Assembly (NCBI GenBank): GCA_039815185.1
Contig: JBCBZT010000095.1
Coordinates: forward strand, 1-17,338
Length of the DNA: 17,338 nucleotides
Reading direction: 5' to 3'
Source: Cyanobacteria bacterium P01_A01_bin.123
GTDB lineage: Bacteria > Cyanobacteriota > Cyanobacteriia > Phormidesmidales > Phormidesmidaceae
Shown piece by piece: positions 1 to 17,338 of this stretch. Under the pieces are notes generated by a model. That model worked only from the letters and a program-made list of their open reading frames with translations, did no database searches and had not been told where the DNA came from. The translations under genes were made by a program, and so were the position numbers. Positions within the stretch are counted from its first letter, which is position 1. The number at the start of each line of letters is the position of its first letter.

Positions 1-211
1 GAGTCGCTCAAAGAAGCCTCCTACCCTCCGTCAAGCCATGCTTTGGATTGCCCAATTAGGCGGATTTCTAGCTCGCAAAGGTGATGGAGAACCAGGCTTG
101 AAAACGCTATGGCGAGGGCTCACTAAGCTCCATACTTTGATAGAAGGAGCCCAACTAGCCGCTGAAACCTAACCTGTAAAAGTCTTTGAGCAACTTATGC
201 GTAAGGGACAG
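1..211 (+). mobile_element. Right end of an IS4/IS50-group insertion sequence, with a 19-bp terminal inverted repeat at 193-211
   Basis: ACTTATGCGTAAGGGACAG (reverse complement CTGTCCCTTACGCATAAGT) matches the Tn5 outside end CTGACTCTTATACACAAGT at 14/19 positions. It lies 20 bp after the transposase stop. Confidence 0.88.
2..172 (+). CDS. IS4-family (IS50/Tn5-like) transposase, C-terminal fragment, 5'-truncated by the window edge
   Basis: Not in the ORF track. Frame 2 translates to SRSKKPPTLRQAMLWIAQLGGFLARKGDGEPGLKTLWRGLTKLHTLIEGAQLAAET*. The IAxLGGFLxRKGDGEPGxKTLWRG motif is the Tn5-type C-terminal dimerisation region. Stop TAA at 170-172. Confidence 0.93.
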   Translation, partial: SRSKKPPTLRQAMLWIAQLGGFLARKGDGEPGLKTLWRGLTKLHTLIEGAQLAAET

Positions 212-244
212 CCTTGTGAAGGGGAGGTGCCGTAGGCAGAGGGG
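212..244. repeat. Partial cyanobacterial short dispersed palindromic repeat, cut by the IS
   Basis: CCTTGTGAAGGGGAGGTGCCGTAGGCAGAGGGG resembles the common cyanobacterial CCCCTT-n-AAGGGG-GTGCCGTAGGC-GGGG repeat. The outer left arm is missing at the IS boundary. Confidence 0.6.
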
Positions 245-376
245 TATTCATCTGTAGCCAGAAATTTGCGATTGGGTATTGGGCGGTAGCTGCGAGCCCA
301 ATTGCTTATGCATAGTGAATTTTTCCCCGGCGAAGGAACCTTAGAATGGGTGGATTCCTTGCAAGATAAGGCTTTG

Positions 377-421
377 CTCCCCTTCTCCCAGATTTGGGAG
401 AAGGGGTTGGGGGATGAGGGC
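377..421. repeat. Cyanobacterial short dispersed palindromic repeat; may also act as 3' hairpin of the minus-strand gene
   Basis: Perfect 12-bp stem CCCCTTCTCCCA (379-390) / TGGGAGAAGGGG (395-406), loop GATT, followed by the typical TTGGGGGATGAGGG tail. Confidence 0.75.
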
Positions 422-450
422 CTTCGGGGTGTTATTTGGTTACAAACGCC

Positions 451-3219
451 TTACCCCAAATCTAGCTCCGCCTTCATCAAACCATCCCCCATCGGCTTCA
501 ACGTAAAGCCCACTTTCTGAAACACATGGCGCATGGCACCATTCTCCATCAGCACCTCAGCCGTAATCCGCTGCAAGCCCTCACCGCGAGCAATTCCAAT
601 CAGCCGCTCTAGCAATTCGGTTCCTAACCCAAGCCGCTGGGCCGGATCAGCCACCAACATGGCAAACTCGGCTTCATTCGTATCGTGTAATTTACTCAGC
701 CTGCCCACCGCCAAAATCTCACGGTGCCCCGTCTCAGGGTTGTCATAATCAGCCACGAGTGCCATTTCACAGTCATAGTCAATAAAGCAAATCCGGGTGA
801 GCCGCTCATGGGCGGTGCGGTGGCTGAGCTTCATCAGGTGAAAGTAGCGGAGGTAAACGCTTTGCTCAGACAGGGTCTGGTGAAACTGAACAATCAGCGG
901 TTCATCTTCGGGCTGAATCGGGCGGATGGTGACCGTGCGCCCGTCTTTGGCGATCCAGTCAGCCACATACTGGGTGGGATAAGAACGAATCGCAGGCTTA
1001 GGAATCTGGTCTAAATCGACTTCAGCGCTGTAAAGGACAACGCGGGCATCCAAGGCTTGCAGATGCCGGGTACCCGGAGCATCAACCGGAGATACCAACA
1101 AAGGATTGATGTCGATCTCTTGGATCTCGGGATGCTCAACCACCAGCTGGCTAAAGCGCACCAATATCTGCTCTAGCTGATGCAGATCAATGGCGGATCG
1201 ACCCCGGGTACCTTGCAGGGCCGTATAGATCCGCGTCCGCTCCATTAGCCGTCGGGCCAAAGTCGTGGTGAGGGGGGGCAGCGCGATCGCGCTATCACGC
1301 ATCACCTCAACCATTTGGCCCCCGGTCCCAAACAGCAACACGGGGCCAAATTGGGCATCAATGCTGCTGCCCAAGATCAGTTCGTAGCCGTCATCTCGGT
1401 TGATCATCGGCTGCACCGTCACCCCGTTGAAATGCTCAGCGCCCGCTTTAGCGGTGACTGCCGCTTCAATATCGGCATAGGCTTGCTCAACGGTGGTCGG
1501 GTGGTTCAGATTGAGCTTGACGCCGCCAACATCTGTTTTATGGGTAATCGTTTCAGACAATAGTTTGAGCACCACCGGATAGCCCAAGCGCTCGGCGCAG
1601 TCAACGGCCTCGGCTGGACTGGTCGCTTTTAAGGTCTCCACAATCGGAATCCCATAGGCCGCTAACACCTGCTTAGACTCTTGCTCTGTGAGCAGCGTCC
1701 GCTCCTGCTGCCGAACCGATTGCAACAGATCATCCACCTGCGATCGCGCCGCGCCATGCCCATTGTCCTCAATGGCTGCAATTGGGGTTTCATATAACGC
1801 CCTGAGGTTGTAGCTATACCGCCACATGAAGTTAAACAACCGCGCTGCCGCATCGGGATAAGGATAGGTGGGAATGCTGGCCTCATTTAAAATCTCTTCA
1901 CCCGCCATCGCCTCAGTGCCCCCCATCCAGCTCGCCAGAACGGGTTTATCACTCTTTTGGGCGTAGGCTTTGAGTTGTTCAGCCGTGCGAATCGGATCCG
2001 TCATCGCCTGCGGCGTCAAAATCACCAAGATGCCATCCCCATCGGGATCTTCAGCCGCAATTTCAAAGGCCTTGGTATAGCGCTCAGGATCGGCATCGCC
2101 CAAAATATCAACCGGATTGCTATGACTCCAGTGGGTCGGCAACACATGATTCAACGCTGCAATGGTGTCGGCATTCAACGTGGCCAACTGCCCCCCCGAC
2201 GTGATTAGCGCATCGGTGGTCAGCACTCCGGGGCCACCCGCATTCGTCACAATTGTCAGCTTGGGGCCTTGGGGCAGGCGATCTTGCTTGGCTAACACTT
2301 CAGCCACATCAAACATTTCAGCGATCGTATCCACCCGCAGCACCCCGCAGCGCCGAAACGCAGCGTCTAACACGGCATCGCTACCCGCCAATGACCCCGT
2401 ATGGGAAGCCGCCGCCTTGGCCGCCGCTTCCGTCCGTCCAGCTTTGATCACAATGATCGGTTTGGTCAAAGCCACTTCCCGCGCGGCGGAGAGAAACGAA
2501 CGGGCATCGCCGATGCTTTCCATATAAATGACGATGCTGTGGGTGTGGGGATCATCGCCGAGATAATAGATTAAGTCGCCCCAATCCACATCCAGCATGG
2601 ATCCAATGGAGACGAAAGCGCTGAAGCCCACACTTTCTCGAATGCTCCAGTCCAGCACGGCAGTGCAAATCGCCCCACTCTGGCTAATAAAGGCAACGTT
2701 ACCGGGTTTCGCCATGGTTCCGGCGAAGGTGGCATTCAACCCATTACCCGGGCTCATCACCCCCAAGCAGTTAGGGCCAATCAGCCGCAGTTGGCTTTGG
2801 CGGAGTTGCGCCAAAATATCCTGCTCTAAAGCCAGTCCGGCTTCACCAATTTCTTTGAAGCCCGCAGAAATGACAATCGCTCCTTTTACCCCGGCTTCAA
2901 TACACTCGCGAATAATGTCGGGCACTGTAGGGGCAGGGGTGACAATGATCACCAGCTCAACCACCTCTGGGATTGCTTTAATCGAGCTGTAGGCCTTGAT
3001 GCCCAAAACACTGCTGCGTTTAGGGTTGACTGGAAAAAGCGTGCCCCCAAATGGATGACTAATTAGATTCCATAGCAGGGTCCGCCCAACACTGCCCGCA
3101 CGATCGGTAGCCCCAATCACGGCAACGGTTTTGGGTCTAAAAATAGCCCTCAGGGGCTGATGCTCCGATCGCAAGATGTCATAAGCGGGATCGGGAATCA
3201 ACGTTTGTAAATTGGTCAT
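451..3219 (-). CDS. Bifunctional ADP-forming acetate--CoA ligase family protein / GNAT acetyltransferase (Pat-like architecture)
   Basis: 922 aa. CoA-binding N-terminus ([14 protein letters not shown]), SQSGA, phospho-His loop [13 protein letters not shown]-grasp with HKTDVGGV and IDINPL, and C-terminal GNAT ([26 protein letters not shown]). Confidence 0.93.
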
Positions 3220-4066
3220 ATTGAAACCTGCACCATAAACGCCGATAGACGTAAAACTTTAAACGCTAAAGGTCTGACGAACCCACGTCGGCATTGCCCT
3301 CTAGCTTTGAATTAATCAAGCGTAAACCCATCAAAATAAGACTGTCTGGCAAATAAACTGTGTCTACATCCAGATCCACAGTTTCTTCTTAAGCTAAAAC
3401 TCCAGATTTCAAATCGGATGTGGTTTAGAACACAGCGTAAACGCATCAAAGCTTTGAAGCACACACCTCATTTATAGCCGGACTATCTATAGCTATAGCA
3501 AACAAAATGCTGACGACTGCACATTAGCCTTTGCAGCGTTTATTCGCTGGCCACCTTAAATTTAGACGAAGTCAAGCTGATTCAAACTCGATCAAACCTG
3601 AAGTGAAAATTAAGTTTGAAGATCACCGATAGACACCCGCAGACAACTCAGACAAACCAGACTAAAACAACTCAGACATTGCCTTAATGGCTCCCACAAT
3701 TAACCCAAAAGATATCCATAAAGGATATCTATATAGCTTTATCTATAGACTAACAAAACTCAAAAGTATCGGGGATTACGCACTATCACAAATTGGCGTA
3801 TTGGTTGCTACAGACCCATCTGATTTTCGCTTAAAGAAGCCCAAGTTATTTTTTTTTGTGAATCTGACGAGATGATTTTCTATCGCTACAAATAAACTAA
3901 GATTGTAGGTAGATAAGCAGATCTACTCAGCGCTAAACCTCTACTCACATAAGGTCTAGCCACATTCCATGGGATTCATCAAGGTTTTTGAGTTGATTTC
4001 TCAACCTACGATTGTGCTTAGATAGCAGCCTTGCCTCCAGTTACAGAAGAGAGGGATTTTTTACAT
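3220..4066. promoter_or_regulatory. Divergent control region between the acyl-CoA synthetase/GNAT gene and adhE
   Basis: About 850 bp, AT-rich, between two divergent start codons. Contains several direct and inverted repeats (see findings). Promoter positions cannot be fixed from sequence alone. Confidence 0.7.
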
Positions 4067-6718
4067 ATGGCGATCGCAACTGTTAACGCCCTAGAAGCAT
4101 TGATTCAAAACGTTAAGGCGGCTCAAGCCGAATACGCTCACTTCACGCAAGAAACCGTTGATTACATTTTCAAAAAAGCCGCGCTCGCCGCTAATGCAGC
4201 CCGGATTCCCCTAGCTAAAGTTGCCGTTGAAGAAACGGGTATGGGCGTGGTTGAAGACAAGGTGATTAAGAACCACTTTGCCTCCGAGATTATCTACAAC
4301 AAATACAAGCACGAAAAGACTTGTGGCGTCATAGAAGAAGATAAATCCTTTGGGATTCAACGGATTGCCGAACCCGTCGGCATTTTGGCGGGTATTGTCC
4401 CCACCACGAACCCCACCTCAACCGCGATTTTCAAAGCCTTAATTGCCTTGAAAACCCGCAACGCAATTATTTTTTCACCCCACCCTAGGGCCAAGCGCTG
4501 CACGATTCAAGCCGCCCGTGTGGTGCTAGAAGCCGCTGTCGCGGCGGGCGCTCCAGAAAACATCATTGGCTGGATCGATGAACCGTCTGTGGAACTCTCC
4601 CAAGCCTTGATGCAACACCCCGATATCAACTTGATTTTGGCCACGGGTGGGCCCTCGATGGTGAAAGCCGCTTACTCGTCGGGTCACCCCTCCCTGGGGG
4701 TCGGCTCAGGCAATACCCCAGCCGTGATTGACACCACTGCCGATATCAAAACGGCGGTTTCCTCTATTCTGCTCAGTAAGACCTTTGACAACGGCATGAT
4801 CTGCGCCAGCGAACAGTCTGTGATTGTGCTGGATGAGGTTTACGAGGCAGTACATGAAGAATTCAAGGCTCGGGGAGCCTATTTCTTAACCGAGGGCGAT
4901 CGCGCCCATTTGAGCCCCAAACTTTTAGTCAATGGTCGTTTGAATGCCGAAATCGTCGGGCAACCCGTGACCAGGCTGTCAGAGATTGCAGACATCTCTG
5001 TGCCTGACAATACGCGCGTGTTAATCGGTGAAGTCAGCGATATCAATCACGATGAACCCTTCGCTTACGAGAAGCTGACCCCAGTCCTGGCCATGTATCA
5101 CGCCAGTGACTTTGAGGATGCGGTGGATAAAGCCAAGCAGCTCGTTTGCTTCGGGGGCCGGGGGCACACCGCCGTGCTCTATACCGATCCGGCCAACATC
5201 GAACACATCCGCAACTTTGAAGACAGCGTAGAAACGGCCCGCGTGTTGATTAACACCCCGTCTTCCCAGGGGGCCATTGGCGACCTTTACAATTTCCGCT
5301 TAGATCCCTCTTTGACCCTAGGTTGCGGGACGTGGGGCGGTAACTCCGTCAGTGAAAACGTTGATCCCCATCACTTACTCAACATCAAAACGGTGGCGGA
5401 GCGCCGCGAAAACATGCTCTGGTTCCGAGTGCCGCCCAAGGTGTATTTCAAGTACGGGGCGCTACCCGTCGCCCTGCAAGAACTGGCCGGTCGCCAACGG
5501 GCCTTAATCGTGACCGACAAGCCCCTCTACAACCTGGGCATGACCGCCAGCCTAGAAGATGCCCTCAAACAGATCGGTCTCACTTACGACATCTTCTACG
5601 ATGTGGAACCCGATCCTTCTCTAGAGACGGTTCAGCGGGGGCTGGCGCTGATGAACTCGTTCAACCCAGACGTAATTATTGCCATCGGCGGCGGGTCGCC
5701 CATGGATGCGGCCAAAGTCATGTGGTTGATGTATGAGCACCCCGACATTGAGTTTGAAGGGCTAGCCATGCGATTCATGGACATCCGCAAGCGAGTCTAT
5801 GAATTGCCACCCTTAGGGGAAAAGGCGATTATGGTGGCCATTCCCACCACCTCCGGCACGGGCTCAGAAGTCACCCCCTTTGCAGTGGTGACCGATCAGC
5901 GGGTGGGGGTGAAATATCCCTTAGCAGACTACGCCCTCACCCCCACCATGGCAATTGTCGATCCCGCTTTAGTGCTGAACTTGCCGAAGCGGCTGACGGC
6001 CTACGGCGGCATTGATGCCCTCACCCATGCCCTCGAAGCCTACGCGTCTGTGATGGCCTCTGAATTCACCAATGGCATGGCTCTCGAAGCGATTCAACTG
6101 TTGTTTGAATATCTGCCCAGGGCTTATCGCCACGGGGCCCACGATCCCGAGGCTCGGGAAAAGGTTCACTATGCCTCCACCATTGCGGGCATGGCCTTTG
6201 CTAACAGTTTCCTCGGCATTTGCCATTCCATGGCCCACCAGCTTGGCGGTACCTTCCACATTCCCCACGGTCTGGCGAATGCGTTGATGATTTCCCACGT
6301 GATTCGCTACAACGCCACCGATGCGCCGTTCAAACAGGCGACCTTCTCCCAATACAAATATCCCAATGCCAAGTGGCGTTACGCCCGGGTTGCAGAATTC
6401 CTAGGACTCGCAGGCATCAACGAAGGGGATAAGGTCAACGCCTTAATTGCAGCTGTAGAAGATCTGAAGCGGCAGTTGGATATTCCAATCTCGATCCGCG
6501 ACGCCATGTCGGGCACCGAGGTAGATTTCTTCACCAAGCTAGATCTAGTGGCCGATCAGGCGTTTGACGATCAGTGTACGGTGGCAAACCCCCGCTATCC
6601 GCTAATTAGCGATCTGAAGCAACTGCTCGTCGATGCTTATCGTGGGGTATCACCGCTCACCCATATCGATCAGGTTCCCACAGCCGCATCAGAATCAGAA
6701 CTTCAGCCAATCGGCTAA
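4067..6718 (+). CDS. adhE: Bifunctional acetaldehyde-CoA/alcohol dehydrogenase
   Basis: ALDH domain (PTTNPTST, ATGG, catalytic Cys in FDNGMICASEQ), linker LTLGCGTWGGNS, Fe-ADH domain (GGGSPMDAAK, PTTSGTGSEVT, DALTHALE, CHSMAH, HGLANA). Start moved from TTG 4031 to ATG 4067, which follows the SD-like GAGAGGGA. Confidence 0.97.
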   Translation: MAIATVNALEALIQNVKAAQAEYAHFTQETVDYIFKKAALAANAARIPLAKVAVEETGMGVVEDKVIKNHFASEIIYNKYKHEKTCGVIEEDKSFGIQRIAEPVGILAGIVPTTNPTSTAIFKALIALKTRNAIIFSPHPRAKRCTIQAARVVLEAAVAAGAPENIIGWIDEPSVELSQALMQHPDINLILATGGPSMVKAAYSSGHPSLGVGSGNTPAVIDTTADIKTAVSSILLSKTFDNGMICASEQSVIVLDEVYEAVHEEFKARGAYFLTEGDRAHLSPKLLVNGRLNAEIVGQPVTRLSEIADISVPDNTRVLIGEVSDINHDEPFAYEKLTPVLAMYHASDFEDAVDKAKQLVCFGGRGHTAVLYTDPANIEHIRNFEDSVETARVLINTPSSQGAIGDLYNFRLDPSLTLGCGTWGGNSVSENVDPHHLLNIKTVAERRENMLWFRVPPKVYFKYGALPVALQELAGRQRALIVTDKPLYNLGMTASLEDALKQIGLTYDIFYDVEPDPSLETVQRGLALMNSFNPDVIIAIGGGSPMDAAKVMWLMYEHPDIEFEGLAMRFMDIRKRVYELPPLGEKAIMVAIPTTSGTGSEVTPFAVVTDQRVGVKYPLADYALTPTMAIVDPALVLNLPKRLTAYGGIDALTHALEAYASVMASEFTNGMALEAIQLLFEYLPRAYRHGAHDPEAREKVHYASTIAGMAFANSFLGICHSMAHQLGGTFHIPHGLANALMISHVIRYNATDAPFKQATFSQYKYPNAKWRYARVAEFLGLAGINEGDKVNALIAAVEDLKRQLDIPISIRDAMSGTEVDFFTKLDLVADQAFDDQCTVANPRYPLISDLKQLLVDAYRGVSPLTHIDQVPTAASESELQPIG

Positions 6719-6730
6719 CGCGTTTTCAGT

Positions 6731-6759
6731 GCGGTGCAGCGGTTGCTACCCTGCACCGC
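6731..6759 (+). other. GC-rich intergenic hairpin between adhE and pflB
   Basis: GCGGTGCAG (6731-6739) / CTGCACCGC (6751-6759), extendable by GGT/ACC. No U-tract follows. Confidence 0.65.
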
Positions 6760-6844
6760 GACATCGCCTCAACCCGCAGCATGAAAGTTTCATTTGGTTA
6801 CGCCATCCCGTTACGCCACATCAATTCCACAACGAGGTAATTCT

Positions 6845-9121
6845 ATGGTCACGACCCCAATTCGCAACACCAATCAATCAACCACCCCTGTTAATCAAGA
6901 CGTCTGGCAGGGTTTCTCGCCCGGTGCTTGGCAAGCTGAGATTAACGTGCGGGACTTTATTCAGCGCAACTATGCCCCCTACACGGGTGATGACACCTTC
7001 TTAGCTGGGGCAACGGAACGAACCCAGGCGCTGTGGGCTCAGGTCAGCGATCTGATGGTCCAAGAGCGATCGCAAGGCATTCTCGATGCAGACACCCAAG
7101 TCCCCACGGGGATTACAGCCCACGCTCCGGGCTATATCGACGCCTCCCTAGAGCAAATTGTGGGCCTGCAAACCGATAAGCCCTTGAAGCGGGCGATTAT
7201 GCCCCTGGGAGGAATTCGGGTCGTCCGCAAGTCTCTGGAAGCTTACGGCTACGAGCTAGATGCAGGCACTCACGAAATTTTCACCAAGTACCGCAAGACC
7301 CATAATGACGGCGTGTTTGATGCCTATACCCAAGAAATGAGGCTGGCGCGGCACTCTGGCATCATTACCGGCCTCCCCGACGCCTATGGTCGCGGGCGGA
7401 TTATTGGTGACTACCGGCGGGTCGCGCTGTACGGCATCGACCGTCTGATTGCCGATAAACGCGACCAACTCACTTCCTTAGAAGTCGATGCGATCATCGA
7501 AACCGTTATCCAACAGCGGGAAGAAATCAACGAGCAAATTCGCGCCCTGGATGAACTCAAAGCGATGGCCACGAACTACGGCTTTGACATCAGCCGTCCG
7601 GCATTGACAGCCCAAGAGGCGATCCAGTGGACCTATTTTGGCTACCTAGGCGCTGTAAAAGAGCAAAATGGCGCGGCGATGTCGCTTGGGCGAATTTCCA
7701 CCTTCCTAGATATCTACATTGAACGGGATTTGGCTAACGGCACACTGAGCGAAGGGGATGCCCAAGAGCTGATTGACCACTTGGTGATGAAGCTGCGGAT
7801 GGTGCGTTTTTTGCGCGCCCCTGAATATAACCAACTGTTCTCAGGCGATCCCGTGTGGGTGACCGAGTGCATTGGCGGCATGGGTGAAAACGGCCAGCCA
7901 TTGGTAACGAAAAGCAGCTTCCGGATGCTGCAAACCCTCTACAACCTCGGCCCTGCACCGGAGCCTAACCTAACTGTGCTGTGGTCTGAGCAGTTGCCCC
8001 TAGACTTCAAGCGCTTCTGTACCAAAACGTCCATCGACACCAGCTCGATTCAGTATGAAAACGACGACCTGATGCGGCCTTTGTACGGCGATGACTACGG
8101 GATTGCTTGCTGTGTCTCGGCCATGCGGATTGGGAAGCAGATGCAGTTCTTCGGGGCGCGGGTGAATTTGGCCAAGGCCCTACTGTACGCCATCAACGGC
8201 GGCAAAGATGAGAAATCGGGTAAACAAGTTGGCCCGACCCTCGACCCCATCACCGCAGAAGTGCTGACGTACGACGAAGTTGCTGATAAATTCAACCAGA
8301 TGCTGGCGTGGTTGGCGAAGACCTACGTCAACACCCTCAACGTCATTCACTACATGCACGATAAGTACTGCTATGAGCGGATAGAGATGGCGCTGCACGA
8401 TCGCGATGTTTATCGCACCATGGCCTGCGGCATTGCCGGGTTATCCGTGGTGGGAGATGCGCTCTCGGCGATTAAGTACGCTCGGGTTAAGGTGCTGCGC
8501 AATGACGACGGTCTCGCGGTTGATTATGAGATTGACGGCGACTATCCCAAGTTTGGCAACAACGACGATCGCGTCGACAGCATCACGTCTGGGTTGGTTG
8601 AGCAGTTTATGAACTTGGTGCGACAAAACCCAACTTACCGAAACGCCGTGCCAACGCAGTCAATTTTGACAATTACCTCTAACGTGGTTTACGGCAAGAA
8701 AACCGGCAGCACCCCCGATGGCCGCAAGGCGGGTGAACCCTTTGCCCCAGGGGCCAACCCAATGCACGGGCGGGATACAAAAGGCGCGATCGCGGCCTGT
8801 GCTTCCGTCGCCAAACTGCCCTACGAGCACGCTCAGGACGGCATCTCCTACACCTTCTCAATCGTGCCCCAAGCCCTCGGCAAAACCGATGAAGCCCAGG
8901 TGCACAACCTCATTGGCGTGCTGGATGCCTATTTCCACGACACCGGGCACCACATCAACATCAATGTGCTCAACCGTGAGACCTTGCTAGACGCCATGGA
9001 TCACCCCGAGAAATATCCCCAACTCACCATTCGGGTCTCGGGCTATGCGGTGAACTTTATCAAACTCACCCGCGAGCAACAGCTCGACGTGATCAACCGC
9101 ACATTCCACGAACGGATCTAA
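6845..9121 (+). CDS. pflB: Formate C-acetyltransferase (pyruvate formate-lyase)
   Basis: Catalytic Cys-Cys in [10 protein letters not shown], glycyl-radical motif [29 protein letters not shown] 6845, preceded by SD GAGGT, is preferred over TTG 6794. Confidence 0.97.
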
Positions 9122-9129
9122 TCTGAAAC

Positions 9130-9160
9130 GGTTCGGGCGTGGCAGCGCCACGTCCGAACC
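9130..9160 (+). terminator. Strong hairpin after pflB (partial terminator or mRNA-stabilising stem)
   Basis: 14-bp stem GGTTCGGGCGTGGC / GCCACGTCCGAACC with one G-U pair, loop AGC, 8 nt after the pflB stop. No clear U-tract. Confidence 0.6.
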
Positions 9161-9260
9161 AATCGATACTTAATTGTTTGCAAGGAGGATTCAGCTAGAA
9201 AAGGATCGGGTTGCCACAAAAGGTTTCCCAAAACCGTCCCTGCCGTTGCTCGTAAATGAT

Positions 9261-10040
9261 ATGACTGCCCATCCGCTGACCCACCATCCACCCCTACCTG
9301 ATCTCCATTCCTCTCACAAAGGTCGCATTCACTCCATCGAAACCTGCGGCACGGTGGACGGGCCAGGCATTCGCTATGTGATTTTTACCCAGGGTTGTTT
9401 GCTGCGCTGTCAGTATTGCCATAACCCCGACACCCGTGATCCCCTCGGCGGTAGAGAGGTGACGGTGGATGAGCTGATTGACGACATCAAAACCTATCGG
9501 TCTTACCTCAACTTTTCAGACGGCGGCATCACGATTACAGGGGGCGAACCGTTACTCCAACCTGAATTCGTCCGAGAGATTTTTCGCCGCTGCCAAGCAC
9601 TGGGTATCCATACGGCGCTAGACACCTCTGGCTTCCCCGATTTTGAAGCGTCTAAACCCGTCCTCGACCATGTAGACCTCGTTCTGCTCGACATCAAATC
9701 GTTTGATCCGGCAATCTACCATCAGGTGACTAACGTTGCCATCGAGCCAACGCTCCACTTCGCCCGCTACTTGAGTGAAATCCAGCAGCCAACCTGGATT
9801 CGCTTTGTGCTGGTGCCGGGCTTGACCGATGACCGTGATAATGTCGAGGGCTTGGCCCAGTTCGTTTCAACTCTGAATGGCGTTGAGAAAGTAGAAGTTC
9901 TCCCGTTCCATCAGATGGGTGCCTACAAATGGAAAGAACTTGGCCTGCCCTATTTATTAGAAAACACAAATCCACCCACATCAGCGCAGATTGAGGCAGT
10001 TAAACGCACGTTTAGCAGTTATGGGTTACTTGTTGAGTAA
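9261..10040 (+). CDS. pflA: Pyruvate formate-lyase activating enzyme (radical SAM)
   Basis: GRIHSIETCGTVDGPGIR, CxxxCxxC in GCLLRCQYCHNPDT, GGITITGGEP, LDTSG, LPFHQMG. Directly downstream of pflB. ATG 9261 preferred over TTG 9174. Confidence 0.95.
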   Translation: MTAHPLTHHPPLPDLHSSHKGRIHSIETCGTVDGPGIRYVIFTQGCLLRCQYCHNPDTRDPLGGREVTVDELIDDIKTYRSYLNFSDGGITITGGEPLLQPEFVREIFRRCQALGIHTALDTSGFPDFEASKPVLDHVDLVLLDIKSFDPAIYHQVTNVAIEPTLHFARYLSEIQQPTWIRFVLVPGLTDDRDNVEGLAQFVSTLNGVEKVEVLPFHQMGAYKWKELGLPYLLENTNPPTSAQIEAVKRTFSSYGLLVE

Positions 10041-10463
10041 ATCAACAAACTTAGAGATATTTACTAACCCCCAACACCCTAGATTATGTCTTCCTTTTTA
10101 ATCAGAGGTCGAGATCATCTTAAGGGATAATTCGTCTATTCTACAGCCTTAATCTCTGCGACTGTATTGGACAATATCTTTTCATATCAAGACTTGTAGA
10201 TTCTTCTTGACTTTCTCGCATTAGGCTTTTTTGACCAAATAAAAGTCACGATTGCCGTGTTAAGGCATAGAGATTTTATTGAGCGTCTTGTTACTTTTTG
10301 GACAACAAAGTAGTGTTCACACTGGACAGTTTTATGCCGCGGTAATTGAGATTCTATTTTTGCTGTAATCCTTCTCTGTTGATGAGTAGCAGCCTGGGTA
10401 GGAGATAGGTCAATAAGTGCCTTCTCGACCTATGCAGAATCGTCCTTTTATTTATGAAATACT

Positions 10464-12209
10464 ATGTTCAAAACTATTGCGGGTACAGCTGCCGTACTGA
10501 CGTCACTGATTGCTGTAACAGCGGAGTCTGCGGTTGCGGTCACCTTTCGGCTGCAGGACGCTACGATTAGCGATATCAACGATGCCTTTGATGCGGGGGC
10601 GTTAACGTCCGAGCAGTTAGTAGAGCTTTATCTCAACCGGATTGACGCCTATGATGACGCGGGGCCAGCCATTAACGCCGTCATCACGACCAATCCGGAT
10701 GCCTTAGATATTGCGAGAGCCCTCGATTTAGAGCGCCAAACCAGTGGCCCCCGTAGCCCGTTGCACGGTATTCCCATCCTCTTCAAAGACAACCACGACA
10801 CCTTCGATATCCCCACGACGGGTGGCTCAGATGCCCTAGTCGGCTCTGTGCCAACGGATGATGCGTTTGTCGTAGACCTGCTCCGAGATGCGGGGGCAAT
10901 TATCTTTGGCAAAACCGAGATGGATGAATTGGCCATTTCCGGTTCGGGCTATAGCTCCCTTGGTGGCCAGACCTTCAATCCCTACAATTTGCTGCGTCAA
11001 TCGGGGGGCTCTAGCGGGGGGACAGGTGCCGCGATCGCTTCTAGCTTTGCCACCCTAGGCACTGGGAGCGACACGGGCGGCTCAATTCGCACCCCCTGCT
11101 CTTTTCAGGGGCTGGTTTGTGTGCGATCTACCCGTGGCTTAGTCAGCCTCGATGGCATCATTCCCTTTGTGTTGTCGAGGGACATGATTGGCCCAATGGC
11201 CCGTTCGGTCGAAGATGCCGCGATCGCGCTGGGGGTGATGGCAGAATTTGACCCCAACAATCCTGGGATTCAAACGCCGATCGAGGCCCCCCCCGTTGAG
11301 CTCGATAAGTTCTATGACGACTACACCCAGTTTTTAGATGCCGACGCGCTTGATGGGGCTCGGTTAGGATTGGTCACCAACTATTTGGGTGAAGAAAACG
11401 GGGTTGACCCAGAAGTGACGGGCTTGGTCGAAGACGCCCTTGACGTGATGAAAGGATTGGGAGCAGAGATCGTTGAAATTTCGTTTGAAGACGATTTCTT
11501 AGCCACGTTGAGTAGTGTTTACGGCACCGCGATCGCCGTTGAGCAAGAAATTTATTTAGAAGAATACCTGGCGACCTTAGCGCCAGAATATCCCAAGACC
11601 TTAGAAGAACTCATTGAAGTTTTAGAGTCCCCTGAGATTGCCGATTCTGAGACGCCATCTATCATTACAGGCACATTGGAATTTGCCGTTGCCGAAGGCG
11701 ACACAGAGGAAGCCGATTATCTTGAAGTTGCTGACGTGATTGCGCCTTTTCTACGTAATACTTTGACCGACCGGCTGGATTCTCTTGATCTAGATTCGTT
11801 CCTGTTTCCGACCATTGATACCTTTGCCCGCCCAGCTATTGGCATCGACGATCCGACCTTTGTCAATCCCCCTGGCAATCCGCCCGCTCGACAAGTCTTA
11901 TTCGCCAGCTCTACCGGCCTGCCAGATGTCACGGTTCCTGCAGGGTTTGGTTCTCAGGATTTGCCTGTAACCTTATCGTTCACGGGGCGGCCCTACAGCG
12001 AATCTACACTGTTGGGCTTAGCTTATGCTTTTGAGCAAGCGACCCTGCTCCGCCAGTCGCCAGCCTTAACCCCGGCACTAGAGGGGGAAGAATTTGACTA
12101 TACGCCTATCCCAGAGCCAGACTTTGGCATTGTCTTAGTTGGCATGGGTGGCGTTTTGTTGGGGTACAAAGTTCTGAAGCGCAAACGCAGCCAAGTGTCT
12201 GCTTTGTAA
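10464..12209 (+). CDS. Secreted amidase-signature family protein with C-terminal PEP-CTERM sorting signal
   Basis: Signal peptide (MFKTIAGTAAVLTSLIAVTAESAVA). Ser-cisSer-Lys motifs LHGIPILFKDN, GGSSGG, GSDTGGSIRTP. C-terminal IPEP, hydrophobic helix, then KRKR. Confidence 0.92.
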   Translation: MFKTIAGTAAVLTSLIAVTAESAVAVTFRLQDATISDINDAFDAGALTSEQLVELYLNRIDAYDDAGPAINAVITTNPDALDIARALDLERQTSGPRSPLHGIPILFKDNHDTFDIPTTGGSDALVGSVPTDDAFVVDLLRDAGAIIFGKTEMDELAISGSGYSSLGGQTFNPYNLLRQSGGSSGGTGAAIASSFATLGTGSDTGGSIRTPCSFQGLVCVRSTRGLVSLDGIIPFVLSRDMIGPMARSVEDAAIALGVMAEFDPNNPGIQTPIEAPPVELDKFYDDYTQFLDADALDGARLGLVTNYLGEENGVDPEVTGLVEDALDVMKGLGAEIVEISFEDDFLATLSSVYGTAIAVEQEIYLEEYLATLAPEYPKTLEELIEVLESPEIADSETPSIITGTLEFAVAEGDTEEADYLEVADVIAPFLRNTLTDRLDSLDLDSFLFPTIDTFARPAIGIDDPTFVNPPGNPPARQVLFASSTGLPDVTVPAGFGSQDLPVTLSFTGRPYSESTLLGLAYAFEQATLLRQSPALTPALEGEEFDYTPIPEPDFGIVLVGMGGVLLGYKVLKRKRSQVSAL

Positions 12210-12224
12210 CTCTATAGTGCCAGT

Positions 12225-12251
12225 ATCGCCAAAGCTGACGTCCTTGGCGAT
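12225..12251. terminator. Possible hairpin between convergent genes
   Basis: ATCGCCAA (12225-12232) / TTGGCGAT (12244-12251), just after the amidase stop. Confidence 0.35.
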
Positions 12252-12321
12252 CGCGACCTTAATCTACAAGCAAAGAGACAAAATGCTTATGTGATAACTA
12301 GCTGGGCATTGGACTCAGCCT

Positions 12322-12454
12322 CTAAATATCTAGTGCAAACGAGATAGCTTGTTTGATTTGCTCCATCGTCTCACGAGGTAAATTGCCTAGCTTACGTTCA
12401 AGCCTAACTCGTGGAATAGAACCTATTCCTAACTTCACCAGGTTTCGGGTTCAT
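12322..12454 (-). pseudogene. Internally deleted, frameshifted MazF/PemK-type toxin gene
   Basis: ATG at 12454 gives MNPKPGEV, a typical PemK N-terminus. One base later, in another frame, GIGSIPRVRLERKLGNLPRETMEQIKQAISFALDI* reads as a typical PemK C-terminus (stop 12324-12322). The central RP-containing catalytic part is absent. Confidence 0.8.
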
Positions 12455-12620
12455 CGAGCAAAGTTAGGACTTCCTGCTCCACTGCTCGGGAACGTAATAC
12501 ATCCAAGGAGTCTTGGTCTGCAAGATCGATAATGTCTTGAATGAGCTGCCGAACCTCTTCAACGGTATCAGGTTGCCACTCTTGAAATTTGAGATTTAAC
12601 TTCTGAGCAAGAGCATCCAT
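12435..12620 (-). CDS. Small acidic protein, putative antitoxin partner of the MazF/PemK remnant
   Basis: 61 aa from ATG 12620 (MDALAQKL...RSRAVEQEVLTLLDEPETW). Its 3' end overlaps the toxin start by 20 nt, as in type II TA operons. Confidence 0.72.
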   Translation of the reverse strand: MDALAQKLNLKFQEWQPDTVEEVRQLIQDIIDLADQDSLDVLRSRAVEQEVLTLLDEPETW

Positions 12621-12748
12621 AGGTATGTCTGCGATGGTTAGCCTCATGTTAGCATCGCCAATATTCTCTAGTAATTCCAAGTACGGGCTACACTTCGCTG
12701 TAGTCAGTTACATCCACTTAGGATAAATCCCCATCCTCTGCATCGCCG

Positions 12749-14986
12749 ATGGATCTCTTTGATCAACATCGTCAAACTTTACTTGAAAAAGAAGCTCCCC
12801 TTGCCGCTCGTATGCGTCCCCGCACGCTGGACGAGTTTGTCGGGCAAGGCGCAATTGTTGGGCCAGGGCGACTGCTGAGGCGGGCAATCGAGGCTGATCA
12901 ACTGTCGTCGCTGATTTTTTATGGGCCTCCAGGAACGGGTAAAACGACGCTGGCGCGGGTAATTGCCAATACGACTCGTGCCCACTTCATCGCGATTAAT
13001 GCAGTCCTGGCCGGGGTGAAAGACATCCGTGAGGCGATCGCGTCGGCGCAAGACCGCCGGGGACAATTTGGTCAGCGCACTATCCTATTCGTTGATGAAG
13101 TCCATCGGTTTAATAAGGCCCAGCAAGATGCTCTGCTGCCCTGGGTGGAAAATGGCACCGTAATTCTGATTGGGGCCACCACCGAAAATCCTTACTTTGA
13201 GGTGAACAAAGCCCTGGTCAGTCGCTCGCGGGTGTTTCAGCTCAAGCCCTTAGAAGATGACGATTTACGGGCGATCGCGCACCAAGCCCTCACCGATCCA
13301 GAACGGGGCTATGGCGATCACGTTGTGTCCATTTTGCCCGACGCCCTTGACCATCTGGTGAACGTGGCCAACGGGGATGCTCGGGGGCTGCTCAATGCCT
13401 TGGAACTGGCGGTGGAAACCACGCCCGTAGATGACTCCGGCGCGATCGCGATTACCCTCACCGTCGCGGAAGAATCGATTCAGCAGCGGGCCGTCCTCTA
13501 CGACAAAGAAGGAGATGCCCACTTCGACACCATCAGCGCTTTTATCAAAAGCATTCGCGGCTCTGATCCAGATGCGGCCCTGTACTGGTTAGCCCGGATG
13601 CTCTATGCCGGAGAAAATCCCCGCTTTATTTTTCGGCGGTTGGTGATTTTAGCCAGCGAAGATGTGGGATTGGCCGACCCCCACGCGGTCACCGTGGCCA
13701 CCAGTTGCGCCGAATCATTTGATCGAGTGGGCATGCCCGAGGGTCGCTATCCCCTAGCCCAGGCCACCCTGTATTTGGCAACCGCCCCCAAATCCAACAG
13801 CGTCATGGCCTTTTTCGATGCCCTGGCAGCGGTCGAACAAGAACGGGAAGCCGACGTGCCCAATCCGATGAAAGACGGCAACCGCGACAAAAAAGGCTTT
13901 GGCCACGGGGCAGGCTATCTCTATCCCCACGCTTACCGCGATCATTGGGTGGCTCAGCAATATTTACCCACTGCCCTGCAAGGCCAGGTATTTTATCAGC
14001 CCTCTGACCAGGGCTATGAAGACAGCATTCGTGTGCAGGTCGCCCGTCGCCGGGAAGCTCAACTGGCAGCCATTTTAGAGGGGGGCGGTGCCTTGCCAGA
14101 AGGGCTCACCTCTAGTCCTGACAATCCGGGGCAAGAGCGCTGGCTCCAAAGGGCACTGGGGCAAGCTGGAACGCAGTTGGCGTACGGACGCGATCGCTTA
14201 TTTGCCACCCTCCAACCCCAACGGCACCACGTCATCTTAGATGTCAACGCGGGCAGTGGTTTGCTCACCTGGGAAGCCCTGCGCCAGGTGCCCGAAGGCG
14301 GTGTTTATGCTGCGGTTCACCGTCCCCAAGATGCGGCTGCGCTGGTGGAACAAGCGGCCCAATTGCCGGAACTCAATCGACCGATCGTGATGCAGGCCGA
14401 CCTTAACCAGTTGGATCAAGCCCTGGAGCAGCAGGCCAAAGGTGTTCGCTTTGACTGGATTATTGGTCGCAATGCGTTAACTCAAGTGGTTGACAAAGCC
14501 ACAGTCCTCCAGCAGTGGATAAACTGGTTGCAGCCCACAGGCGCGATCGCCCTAGTTGAATCTATCCCCCGTCAAGCCCAACGCCTCTACCAGTTACTCA
14601 ATCCCGATGCTTTGCCAGCAGCGCTTTACCAAACCGTGGTCATCGCCGAAGAGAGCATCTACCAAGATCCCAATAACCCAATGGTCAACTGGGATGCCGC
14701 AGATTTAAAGACCGCCTTTGAAACTGCCGGACTCACCGTTCAACTCACCGTCGAAACACCCCAAACGGAGGTGCTGATTACGCCACGATTGTTTAACCAC
14801 TGGTTCAGTGCTAGTGGTTCTGGTAAGAAACTGACGTATCGCGATCGCCTCTCGGCCTATCTCAATGAAACTGACTTGAAAACCGTTGAAACCACTTTCA
14901 AACGTTATTTATTGAATCAAACCGTCTTGTGGCAAAGTCAAATTGCGTTTATCAGGGGCGATCGCAATGAGACAAAGAGTATTTAA
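12749..14986 (+). CDS. rarA: Replication-associated recombination protein A (RarA/MgsA AAA+ ATPase) fused to a C-terminal class I SAM-methyltransferase-like domain
   Basis: APLAARMRP, Walker [10 protein letters not shown], Walker [50 protein letters not shown]. About 300 extra aa containing [10 protein letters not shown] and FDWIIGRN. Confidence 0.93.
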
Positions 14987-15025
14987 GGGTCTAACCCAGA
15001 AGCGGAGGGATGATTATACTGAAAC

Positions 15026-15148
15026 TTTCTACCTAATTCCCCATATAGGGATCTTAGGCAGACATCATTCCACCTATTTACCCCTAGAAGGATCTTAGGC
15101 TGAAATATTTCCACCTAAGATCCCGTATCAGGATCTTAGGTGGAAAAG
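15026..15148. repeat. Three tandem 41-bp palindromic units (16-bp arm, 7-bp centre, 16-bp arm, 2-bp link)
   Basis: GGATCTTAGG recurs at 15049, 15090 and 15131. Unit 3 is a perfect inverted repeat: TTTCCACCTAAGATCC-CGTATCA-GGATCTTAGGTGGAAA (15108-15146). Confidence 0.9.
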
Positions 15149-15152
15149 TCCT

Positions 15153-15171
15153 CTCTAATAACAAGTTAGAT
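15153..15171 (+). other. attI-like integron recombination simple site (L box, 5 bp, R box)
   Basis: CTCTAAT-AACAA-GTTAGAT compared with attI1 CCCTAAA-ACAAA-GTTRRRY. The R box is a perfect GTTRRRY. Confidence 0.6.
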
Positions 15172-15207
15172 GAAATAGTGTAGTAAAACAAATATCGCTC
15201 ACTGTTA

Positions 15208-16149
15208 CTAGCTGAATCGTTTCATTGTGAGTTCACGATAAGTGCTTGGTGAACAGTTATAAATTCTGCGAAAAGCTTTGTTAAAACTTGTATGAGAGGC
15301 AAAACCAACAATTTCGCTAATGCTTTTGATAGACTGATTTGTCTTACACAGTTGGCGTGCTGCTTCTGACAATCGCCATCGTAGTACATACTCATGAGGA
15401 GGTACAGATAGATAAGTACTAAAGATGCGCTTGAAGGTTGCAATTGACATACCTGATTGATCTGCAAGTGCTTGAATCGTCCAAACTTTTTCAGGTGATG
15501 AATGAAATGCGGCTAGCGATCTCGCTAGGTTCGGTTCACGTATTGCGGCGAAGATTCCAAAAGATGACGAGTTTTGAGTCCCAAAACCACGCAATACTTC
15601 CAGGAATAAAATTTCGGCATAGCGCTGAATAATAGCTGAAGTACCTGGACGCTCATCTTTTAGTTCACCCACGATCAGCTCGATCAGCTGGGTAAAGCGT
15701 GGATTCAGTAAATTTTGCTCAAATACCGTCACGGCCTTAAATGCAGGTGTCAAGATAGGGGCCAAAGCCATGTCAATTGTGAACGTACCGCAAATCATTC
15801 GACACGTGGACCCGGAACCACCTTCATATAGTTTCCAGCCTAGCCCGATTTTTACGGTCTTCTGCTCCATTGTCGCTAAAGACTCAGAGAAAGCTGTCTT
15901 CCCTGATCTCAGCTTAAAGGGGATGTGCGGTGCAACTATTGCAAGTGCACCTGCTGACAATAGAAAATCATTCCCCTGTTGCAATCTGCTTTGCTCTGTC
16001 AGTAAAGCTTCTCCCTCTACGAGAATGTGATAAGCAAAACCATCTATCTCTGTAAATTCCACCCCCCAGGGTGCAGAAGCCGTTACCCCGACCACCATTG
16101 CTGCAGTGGGTTGAATGTTATTAAGTAAGGCTTTCAGAAGCATCTGCAT
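15208..16149 (-). CDS. AraC-family transcriptional regulator with N-terminal cupin-like domain
   Basis: APWGVEF, YHILVEGEA, MICGTF in the N-domain. Double HTH: WTIQALADQSGMSIATFKRIF, PPHEYVLRWRL, ISEIVGFASHTSFNKAFRRIYNCSPSTYR. ATG 16149 (or 16143) is more likely than GTG 16224. Confidence 0.93.
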   Translation of the reverse strand: MQMLLKALLNNIQPTAAMVVGVTASAPWGVEFTEIDGFAYHILVEGEALLTEQSRLQQGNDFLLSAGALAIVAPHIPFKLRSGKTAFSESLATMEQKTVKIGLGWKLYEGGSGSTCRMICGTFTIDMALAPILTPAFKAVTVFEQNLLNPRFTQLIELIVGELKDERPGTSAIIQRYAEILFLEVLRGFGTQNSSSFGIFAAIREPNLARSLAAFHSSPEKVWTIQALADQSGMSIATFKRIFSTYLSVPPHEYVLRWRLSEAARQLCKTNQSIKSISEIVGFASHTSFNKAFRRIYNCSPSTYRELTMKRFS

Positions 16150-16150
16150 A

Positions 16151-16180
16151 TTTGAGCTATATGGATAATATTTTGAGCTA
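16151..16180. promoter_or_regulatory. Candidate AraC-type operator: TTTGAGCTA direct repeat with 21-bp period
   Basis: TTTGAGCTA at 16151-16159 and 16172-16180 in the divergent intergenic region. A further TTGAGC occurs at 16216. Confidence 0.6.
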
Positions 16181-16252
16181 ATCTCGCTATGAACTAACCA
16201 TAGCTGGATGTTAGCTTGAGCCACAAGAACTCAAATATCGAGAATACACATA

Positions 16253-17146
16253 ATGAAAACCACTATTGGAGTTTTAGGCGCTACGGGCCGTGTTGGAGGA
16301 ACAGCTGCTCGCACTTTGATTTCTAAGGGCATCTATCCTCGTCTAATTGTACGTAATGCTCATCAGCTACCTGAGAATATTCGTACTGCTGCTGAAGTCA
16401 TTGAGGCTGATTTGACCAGACCAGAGACCGCGATCGCAGCCACTACTGGATTGGAGACATTATTTTGGCTAACTCCCGATAATTTTCAGGCAGAAGACAT
16501 TCAAAGCTATTACGAGGCGATGGGTGATTGTGCTAAGCAGATTGTTCAAAAAAACAATATTGCAAGAGTCGTACAACTTTCTGCCGCGGGGGCCGATCAA
16601 GACCAATTTGGTATTATCAGTGCTCAGCGTATTATTGAGGATGCATTTCAAAGTGTGGCTACCCATCACTTCATCCTGCGCCCAGCTTATTTTTATGAGA
16701 ATTTTCTGCTCCAGATTCAGTCGTTGAGTCAACAGGGTTTATTATTTGAGTTGTTCCCTGAAGATATTGTTATTCCGATGGTTACAACGACTGATGTCGG
16801 GATTGAAATAGCACGTGTCCTCATCGATTCCTCTTGGTCAGGCACCATTGCTCAAGAAATACGTGGACCAGAGCGACACACCATGCCCTCAGCACTTACT
16901 GCGTTTGGTCAAGCTCTCAGCCGTTCATTTACGTATGTCAGAGTTTCAAGTATGGAAATGACTAAGGTGTTTCAATCACTTGGTGCAACTCAGTCTGTAA
17001 TCGACAATGTGCTTGAAATGTTTAAAGCTATAGCCGAGGGGCGTGCTACGCAATTAGAGGACTCGTCAGTTATTGTTGCTAAAACAGGTGCTCAGCAATT
17101 TGCCCAAACAACTCTGAGTTTTGCCCTTGAAAACTATAAGCAGTAG
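16253..17146 (+). CDS. NmrA-like / atypical SDR NAD(P)H-binding oxidoreductase
   Basis: 297 aa. Rossmann motif IGVLGATGRVG, plus RVVQLSA, ILRPAYFYEN, IPMVTTTDVG, IRGPE. Divergent from araC. Confidence 0.9.
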   Translation: MKTTIGVLGATGRVGGTAARTLISKGIYPRLIVRNAHQLPENIRTAAEVIEADLTRPETAIAATTGLETLFWLTPDNFQAEDIQSYYEAMGDCAKQIVQKNNIARVVQLSAAGADQDQFGIISAQRIIEDAFQSVATHHFILRPAYFYENFLLQIQSLSQQGLLFELFPEDIVIPMVTTTDVGIEIARVLIDSSWSGTIAQEIRGPERHTMPSALTAFGQALSRSFTYVRVSSMEMTKVFQSLGATQSVIDNVLEMFKAIAEGRATQLEDSSVIVAKTGAQQFAQTTLSFALENYKQ

Positions 17147-17222
17147 TTGATTTGGGAGAACCCTTGACGACAACGACTATTTGAAGAATATTTCACAGTC
17201 CGTTTGTGAGATACGTAATCTA

Positions 17223-17338
17223 ATCGGGATAGGGAGAATCCTCACGAATCCCCCCTCCCACACCACCCTGCAAGCGGGTCCGCACAGGGCGGTTCAGCAT
17301 CACGGAGCAAACTCTAACCTGAGTTGTCAACTATAGCC
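17223..17338 (-). mobile_element. 3' end (domains V and VI) of a class C group II intron, continuing beyond the window
   Basis: Minus strand reads GAACCGCCCTGTGCGGACCCGCTTGCAGGGTGGTGTGGGAGGGGGGATTCGTGAGGATTCTCCCTATCCCGAT. DV (17262-17293) has the class C CGC triad. DVI has a GTGA tetraloop and a bulged A 8 nt from the end (17230). The terminus is AT. Confidence 0.92.

Follow-up and report, generated by a model that had tools for sequence, protein, structure and literature searches.

The rarA locus

The window is the whole of a 17,338-bp contig (C111) from its own genome (G000), an 8.09-Mb draft assembly of 133 contigs with 5.99% contamination and 9,048 HIP1 sites; its relatives and control matches point to a cyanobacterium. 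Positions 451-10040 hold an ordinary fermentation cluster (acetate-CoA ligase-like/GNAT fusion, adhE, pflB and pflA) and 10464-12209 an amidase gene, the surroundings of which show a dip in GC. The left contig end (1-215) is a repeat common to three other contig ends and is likely an insertion sequence (IS). To the right lie rarA, an attI platform that starts 16 bp beyond its end, a gene cassette, the first bases of an attC and the end of a group II intron (Table 1). The methyltransferase-like C-terminal part of RarA (window 14225-14986) scores below the Pfam cut-off and is present in 22 of 24 same-family genomes.

A preliminary description made from the DNA letters recognised the attI, the cassette and the intron-split attC. 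All three stand, and we regard it as virtually certain that they are real. It missed that the site is one of about 19 platforms in the genome, a probable second split of the attC by an IS5-family element, and the HIP1 borders with a duplicated rarA end.

Table 1 Features at the right-hand end of the window
Feature	Position	Strand	Remark
rarA/mgsA AAA+ ATPase, 745 aa, methyltransferase-like C-terminal part	12749-14986	+	
125-bp rarA segment between two HIP1 sites	14841-14965	+	HIP1 at 14841-14848 and 14958-14965
HIP1-to-platform spacer, 37 bp	14966-15002	+	likely decayed intI leader
Extended attI platform, type A	15003-15165	+	41-bp period; four 41-bp units
attI simple site CTCTAAT-AACAA-GTTAGAT (L-5bp-R)	15153-15171	+	crossover between G15165 and T15166
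First gene cassette, two divergent ORFs, 43% GC	15166-17222	+	
AraC-family regulator, Cupin_6 and HTH_18	15208-16224	-	antisense to platform
NmrA-like/NAD(P)H-binding protein	16253-17146	+	
ATCTA, first five bases of attC inverse core	17218-17222	+	remainder probably C21:282-337 and 1263-1291
3′ end of multicopy IIC-attC-type group II intron (D5 with CGC triad, D6)	17223-17338	-	contig ends within

The attI site and its repeat platform

The simple site was found exactly as first described. It is no chance match: the pattern CTCTAA-N6-GTTRRRY occurs four times in the 8.1 Mb of G000. The extent of the site had been missed, the core being the terminal part of a 165-bp repeat element. R-like boxes TTAGG are found at 15054, 15095 and 15136 with a TATAC variant at 15015; L-like boxes (CCTA/TCTA) are located at 15032, 15073, 15114 and 15154. 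Measured back from the crossover in an alignment of 21 platform copies, the R-like boxes fall at 30, 71, 112 and about 151 bp and the L-like boxes at 11, 51, 92 and 133 bp. The hexamer TATACT at 15015 is almost invariant across the copies; a scan of the platform sequence found no full sigma-70 promoter consensus (Pc).

The same element is divergent from an intact intI in the relatives G020, G019 and G049. The platform is therefore the intI–attI intergenic region of this cyanobacterial integron family. An inverted-integrase layout was rejected, since platform and intact intI point away from each other. The window site thus combines L and R boxes and a conserved G/TT crossover, at which foreign DNA begins, with homology to a site adjoining intact intI; homology between platforms of different genomes ends at GTT. 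The 41-bp-phased boxes are putative IntI-binding sites.

A platform profile, built with the window copy included, identified 18 loci in G000 at E≤0.002, the best match in the reversed genome having E=0.064. A platform sequence model, derived partly from the genomes on which it was run and used without a shuffled control, matched in 33 of 36 same-family genomes and in 48 of 61 genomes overall. The platform pattern had no match in viral contigs.

As first noted, there is no adjacent integrase gene: no IntI match lies within 1.5 kb upstream of the platform, nor is there a coding remnant of intI within 1.5 kb of the 37-bp spacer. The locus is not a complete integron, in which intI adjoins attI.

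The araC/nmrA cassette

The insert behind the attI is AT-richer, as described (43.4% GC versus 52.9% for positions 1-14986). A distant cyanobacterium (G061), whose rarA is only 71% alike to that of G000, carries a copy with 12 differences over 2,066 bp (99.4% identity). There it takes second position behind an intact attC, has a different downstream neighbour and is split by an IS. The match begins exactly at G15165, where a breakpoint (15165/15166) had been predicted, and just 8 of 30 bases agree upstream. Runs X2, X4 and X5, which come from three studies (that of X2 also including a possible source run), likewise start matching at 15165. The unit runs from TTRRRY to attC and has different neighbours elsewhere, and this comparison shows it, at the level of sequence, to be a mobile cassette; lying directly behind the attI with its left border at G15165, it is also the first cassette, as proposed. 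Its DNA was not found in 60 relatives. A protein-guided search recovered the cassette at one of the three loci returned, and two exact-pattern scans for an intact attC gave no match in JGI metagenomes.

The split attC and its probable continuation

ATCTA does abut an intron end: D5/D6 of a group II intron is found on the minus strand at 17223-17294 with 41.2 bits (Rfam cut-off 40). This 3′ end is present at eight contig ends of G000; the matching 5′ end is seen eight times, seven of them at contig ends and the eighth in an ORF-less copy on C129. At all eight 5′ ends the top strand goes on with ACAA, in agreement with the predicted resumption with AC, and the attC is broken at RYYYA/AC. The 5′ exons end in TTGT and the 3′ exons start with T (8/8 each), insertion is in the bottom strand of attC, opposite to the cassettes, and D5 holds the CGC catalytic triad. 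The TTGT/T rule (PMC7923331, PMC3001079) and the triad (PMC7923331) are given as marks of IIC-attC introns in the available text of these papers, in which the S.ma.I2 lineage shares the triad and bottom-strand TTGT/T insertion inside R″. In these features the window intron is the same in kind; its own ORF is unassembled. A relative's copy (3′ end 94% alike) encodes RVT_1 and GIIM only, and its intron-encoded protein matches introns of a class 1 cassette array at 51% identity, these being among its best plasmid matches.

ORF-less derivatives of about 700 nt are also inserted in attC sites (G000:C129:7811-8501, L125 and L088) and are likely mobilised by full copies. Some intron copies lie outside attC sites (left ends of G000:C11 and C103; C106, C121 and C127), that on C11 appearing to sit inside a gene.

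No read or contig spans the intron at 17223. An attC right half continues at five of the seven intron 5′ contig ends. The internally deleted attC of the G061 copy retains an 11-nt tail, about four letters of which discriminate, and C21 alone of the five right halves matches it. C21 also carries a second rarA 3′ end, 3.6 kb further along. Judged by these matches, C21 is very probably the continuation of C111 across the intron. Two other guides were rejected: the attC score, as the right halves of C47, C123, C131 and C133 also score as attC when joined, and rarA synteny, as downstream genes vary among the loci of 29 relatives.

A 922-bp IS5-family element that shows a TTA duplication interrupts the attC a second time on C21. 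When intron (as had been suggested) and IS are removed in silico, the joined site is 87 bp long, scores 45 and folds as an attC, with R″/L″/L′/R′ in the bottom strand and z=-3.1 for the circular form, given the inferred C21 link. The contig further holds glyoxalase and GUN4-like genes, the rarA copy, more cassette-like genes and pheS. The proposed search for further cassettes met with attC sites on C21 at 2016-2103 and 3772-3915, if the two contigs are linked. With the rejoined attC these are the basis on which the locus, if C21 continues the array, counts as a CALIN (at least two attC, no nearby intI), a count that is not IntegronFinder output. A first attC heuristic gave 242 matches and was replaced because it was too noisy; the weight-matrix scan used instead, trained on G000's own sites, gave 47 matches in G000 versus 1 in the reversed genome.

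Platforms outnumber integrases

The suggested search for intI elsewhere in the genome located a single intact gene, on C36, versus 19 platform loci after merging of overlapping matches. Seventeen of these could be oriented: one has an intact intI, five have remnants and eleven have none. Among near-closed relatives, G005 has 11 platform loci and three full-length intI (one with a stop), G043 11 platforms and no intI, G049 13 and one, and G039 nine and one. Genomes of this family hold many more platforms than integrases. Half of the strong attC sites in G000 (15 of 30) follow a platform at a distance of no more than 6 kb, and most others are near contig starts. Subscription papers and supplements aside, the literature offered no account of cyanobacterial genomes with many intI-less attI platforms each; excerpts of the archaeal integron preprint and of PMC8876359 contain nothing on intI-less attI.

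Platform motifs differ between IntI clades. A tree of 26 IntI proteins groups the four that have type-A platforms at 99/99 and places the intact IntI of G000 apart from them, with type-B platforms (99/96). The window platform scores 95/75 to type-A references and 15/15 to type-B. It is one of 11 type-A sites among the 17 oriented platforms of G000, three others being type B. The G000 assembly contains no intact type-A intI, only remnants. Each IntI is reported to act strictly on its own attI (PMC2095811, as far as its text is available), thus the window site may now be without a cognate enzyme. An unassembled intI, arrival of one on mobile DNA or cross-reaction of the type-B enzyme may provide exceptions. 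There are hints of the last in one pair of G000 loci: C121 is a type-A site with no intI and C68 a type-B site with a 13-codon remnant, and their first cassettes are 98% alike over the 257 bp assembled. Given the contamination of the assembly, this pair could come from two strains. That the window site is serviced today by a resident integrase seems doubtful.

HIP1 borders and a possible landing at rarA

The island starts at the HIP1 site 14958-14965 and ends on C21 at a HIP1 site three bases after the last attC. The latter opens a second copy of the 125-bp rarA segment (C21:3919-4043, far end of the array), with 13 differences. Both copies have a depth of 32-35 in run X1. The two rarA ends differ by 10%, with six synonymous and five amino-acid changes, and the second is either a decayed duplicate or the allele of another strain. 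The final codons of rarA, up to its stop at 14986, derive from island DNA after HIP1, and recombination at HIP1 may have replaced the end of the gene on integration.

The comparison of the rarA 3′ flank proposed in the preliminary description placed no platform within 1.5 kb of the rarA end in any of 28 relatives; the location of the platform at rarA is lineage-specific. Of 36 intI-less platforms, 12 have a HIP1 site in the 150 bp upstream, versus none of 26 with intI or a remnant (background 15%; binomial p=0.005), counting matches that reach the core and are preceded by 300 bp or more; the rows are not independent and the background is from G000 only. The other 24 intI-less platforms are without a nearby HIP1. 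Some link of HIP1 to site-specific and illegitimate recombination has been reported (PMC4390886, in the text available). On balance we lean slightly towards HIP1 having been the means by which the island landed at rarA.

In G026, a genome of another family, a decayed integron (L154:2500-7400) lies within 4.5 kb of the rarA 3′ end, and a second copy of the rarA end is found near HIP1 sites. This is an independent case.

Proposed loading of the platforms in trans

The locus is probably a detached integron platform (attI and array, no intI), likely landed at rarA through HIP1, with cassettes likely gained or lost since by way of IntI acting in trans. C21 would continue C111, the array would hold several cassettes and run up to HIP1 and the second rarA 3′ copy, and the platform would have landed at the 3′ end of rarA through recombination at HIP1 sites. 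IntI made elsewhere would bind the phased boxes and recombine incoming attC sites at G/TT. Recognition would be largely type-specific, such that a type-A site needs a type-A integrase unless a type-B enzyme cross-reacts. The first cassette would now be frozen, because intron and IS appear to break its attC, and new insertions at the attI would remain possible. More tentatively, and with a little less than even confidence, we suggest a distributed integron, in which one integrase, or a passing one, serves 10-20 intI-less platforms on the chromosome and other replicons through clade-specific 41-bp boxes, with HIP1-bounded spread.

The relative G049 bears most directly on action in trans. A 188-bp ORF-less cassette is first at four of its platforms and is identical there (188/188). 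One of the four adjoins the only intact intI of the genome and three have no intI, two of these being on a separate 697-kb contig with no intI match nearby. Identity spans GTT to GTT, the second cassettes are unrelated, and two sites have tandem copies. All six genome copies of the cassette lie at these four platforms, which agree at 76-85 of 124 bases (one pair at 117/124). The four are the best-scoring type-A platforms of G049, and six other oriented ones have other first cassettes. These identities are natural, if indirect, evidence of loading in trans. In G039 a related case of sharing, at lower identity, involves three platforms and two inner positions, and the first cassette common to C121 and C68 in G000 points the same way. 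No first cassette is shared at ≥90% among the six oriented platforms of G043, nor at intI-less sites among the seven of G005.

For the window site itself, run X2 is informative. The rarA–platform junction is present there at a summed depth of about 35, and the sole cassette contig listed has a depth of 11, the same intron position and five differences, and continues 580 bases into other DNA before 15165. The preliminary claim of service in trans is thus strongly upheld for the platform class by G049 and indirectly for this site by X2; for the resident integrase it is doubtful, as the only intact intI of the assembly sits on another platform type. Editing of the window site in trans after loss of intI has, in our estimate, a good likelihood.

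The main competing view is a dead relic: a complete integron at rarA captured the cassette with its own intI, lost that gene and has been inert since. Graded decay of intI is indeed common (remnants at five of the 17 oriented G000 platforms and at 12 of 62 overall), the assembly has no intact type-A intI and the first attC is doubly broken. The available text on Xanthomonas (10.1101/2025.06.18.660453) provides a precedent of inactivated intI with retained arrays. Against this, the cassette is 99.4% identical in G061 while the two rarA ends differ by 10%, the X2 populations have the intI-less junction with this cassette not directly behind it, and in G049 intI-less platforms are loaded. We consider the relic unlikely.

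Shared first cassettes might instead arise by duplication or gene conversion of platform-plus-cassette blocks. Two of the G049 platforms (L103 and L104, the 117/124 pair) have upstream DNA in common, two G005 integrons that both have intI share a first cassette, and assembly can homogenise identical short repeats. This explanation of the G049 pattern is nevertheless very improbable, since identity extends from the crossover G up to the following GTT, the second cassettes and tandem copies are as described above, and the other platform pairs are 61-69% alike. That the 41-bp block is a repeat or has a regulatory role with no relation to IntI binding, and that the cassette lies in a secondary (attG-like) site, draws on the inferential nature of IntI binding to the repeats and on reported off-target cassette insertion (10.1101/2022.09.11.507474, excerpt), and can be dismissed almost entirely, as homology among genomes stops at GTT, the block fills the intI–attI gap of intact integrons with a motif that varies with IntI clade, and half of the strong G000 attC sites follow a platform.

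The 188-bp cassette family is first at platforms in three genomes (L102, L103, L104 and L108 in G049; C80 and C41 in G023; C180 in G020) and is a candidate selfish, promoter or RNA cassette. Another cassette, in G039, is present five times (L116, L118, L120 and L123) and carries tandem short repeats, each with a HIP1 site, which could seed HIP1 sites at array ends.

Relation to known integrons

In the accessible text of the sources, CALINs are attributed to intI loss, rearrangement or secondary-site insertion (Cury et al. 2016, PMC4889954; review PMC8618304), their cassettes may be excised by an integrase elsewhere (PMC4889954), and according to work on Xanthomonas, in which intI proved to be fixed at ilvD, CALINs can be mobilised in trans (10.1101/2025.06.18.660453). 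Like a CALIN (as described in part of PMC4889954), the window locus has an attC array and no neighbouring intI. It differs in keeping a full attI platform, so that the array can receive cassettes as well as donate them, and in the 9-19 platforms per genome. IntegronFinder is stated to seek only exact class 1-3 attI sequences (PMC4889954, in part), so the window attI would go unreported. The sedentary integrons of Xanthomonas likewise have a chromosomal platform beside a housekeeping gene and an intI that is often deleted or truncated; that platform is, in the text available, ancestral and fixed at ilvD (10.1101/2025.06.18.660453), whereas the rarA location is lineage-specific and the platforms here are many and dispersed. 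The class 1 attI1, as covered by the available part of PMC3146285, shares the simple site with its 5-bp spacer, the G/TT crossover and upstream core-like repeats, but has two direct repeats in 65 bp, where the 165-bp window platform repeats every 41 bp and has boxes of alternating orientation, four of them R-like and four L-like.

How integrase-less arrays arise and what they do is described as an open question, partly since attI is unknown for most integrons (PMC4889954, in part). The attI is recognisable here, which makes their role directly testable and the arrays scorable as targets. If the distributed integron is true, many cyanobacterial CALINs would be live landing pads and not relics. 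G049 offers a natural example in which a single integrase would have loaded sites far apart, and such platforms could also serve as native, type-specific landing pads for inserting genes at several loci in filamentous cyanobacteria.

Additional types of platform, in which different repeat motifs recur at comparable distances, are found at G000:C14:600-1100 and at L065:60-207 in G061. The C14 platform resembles that of the intact intI of G004.
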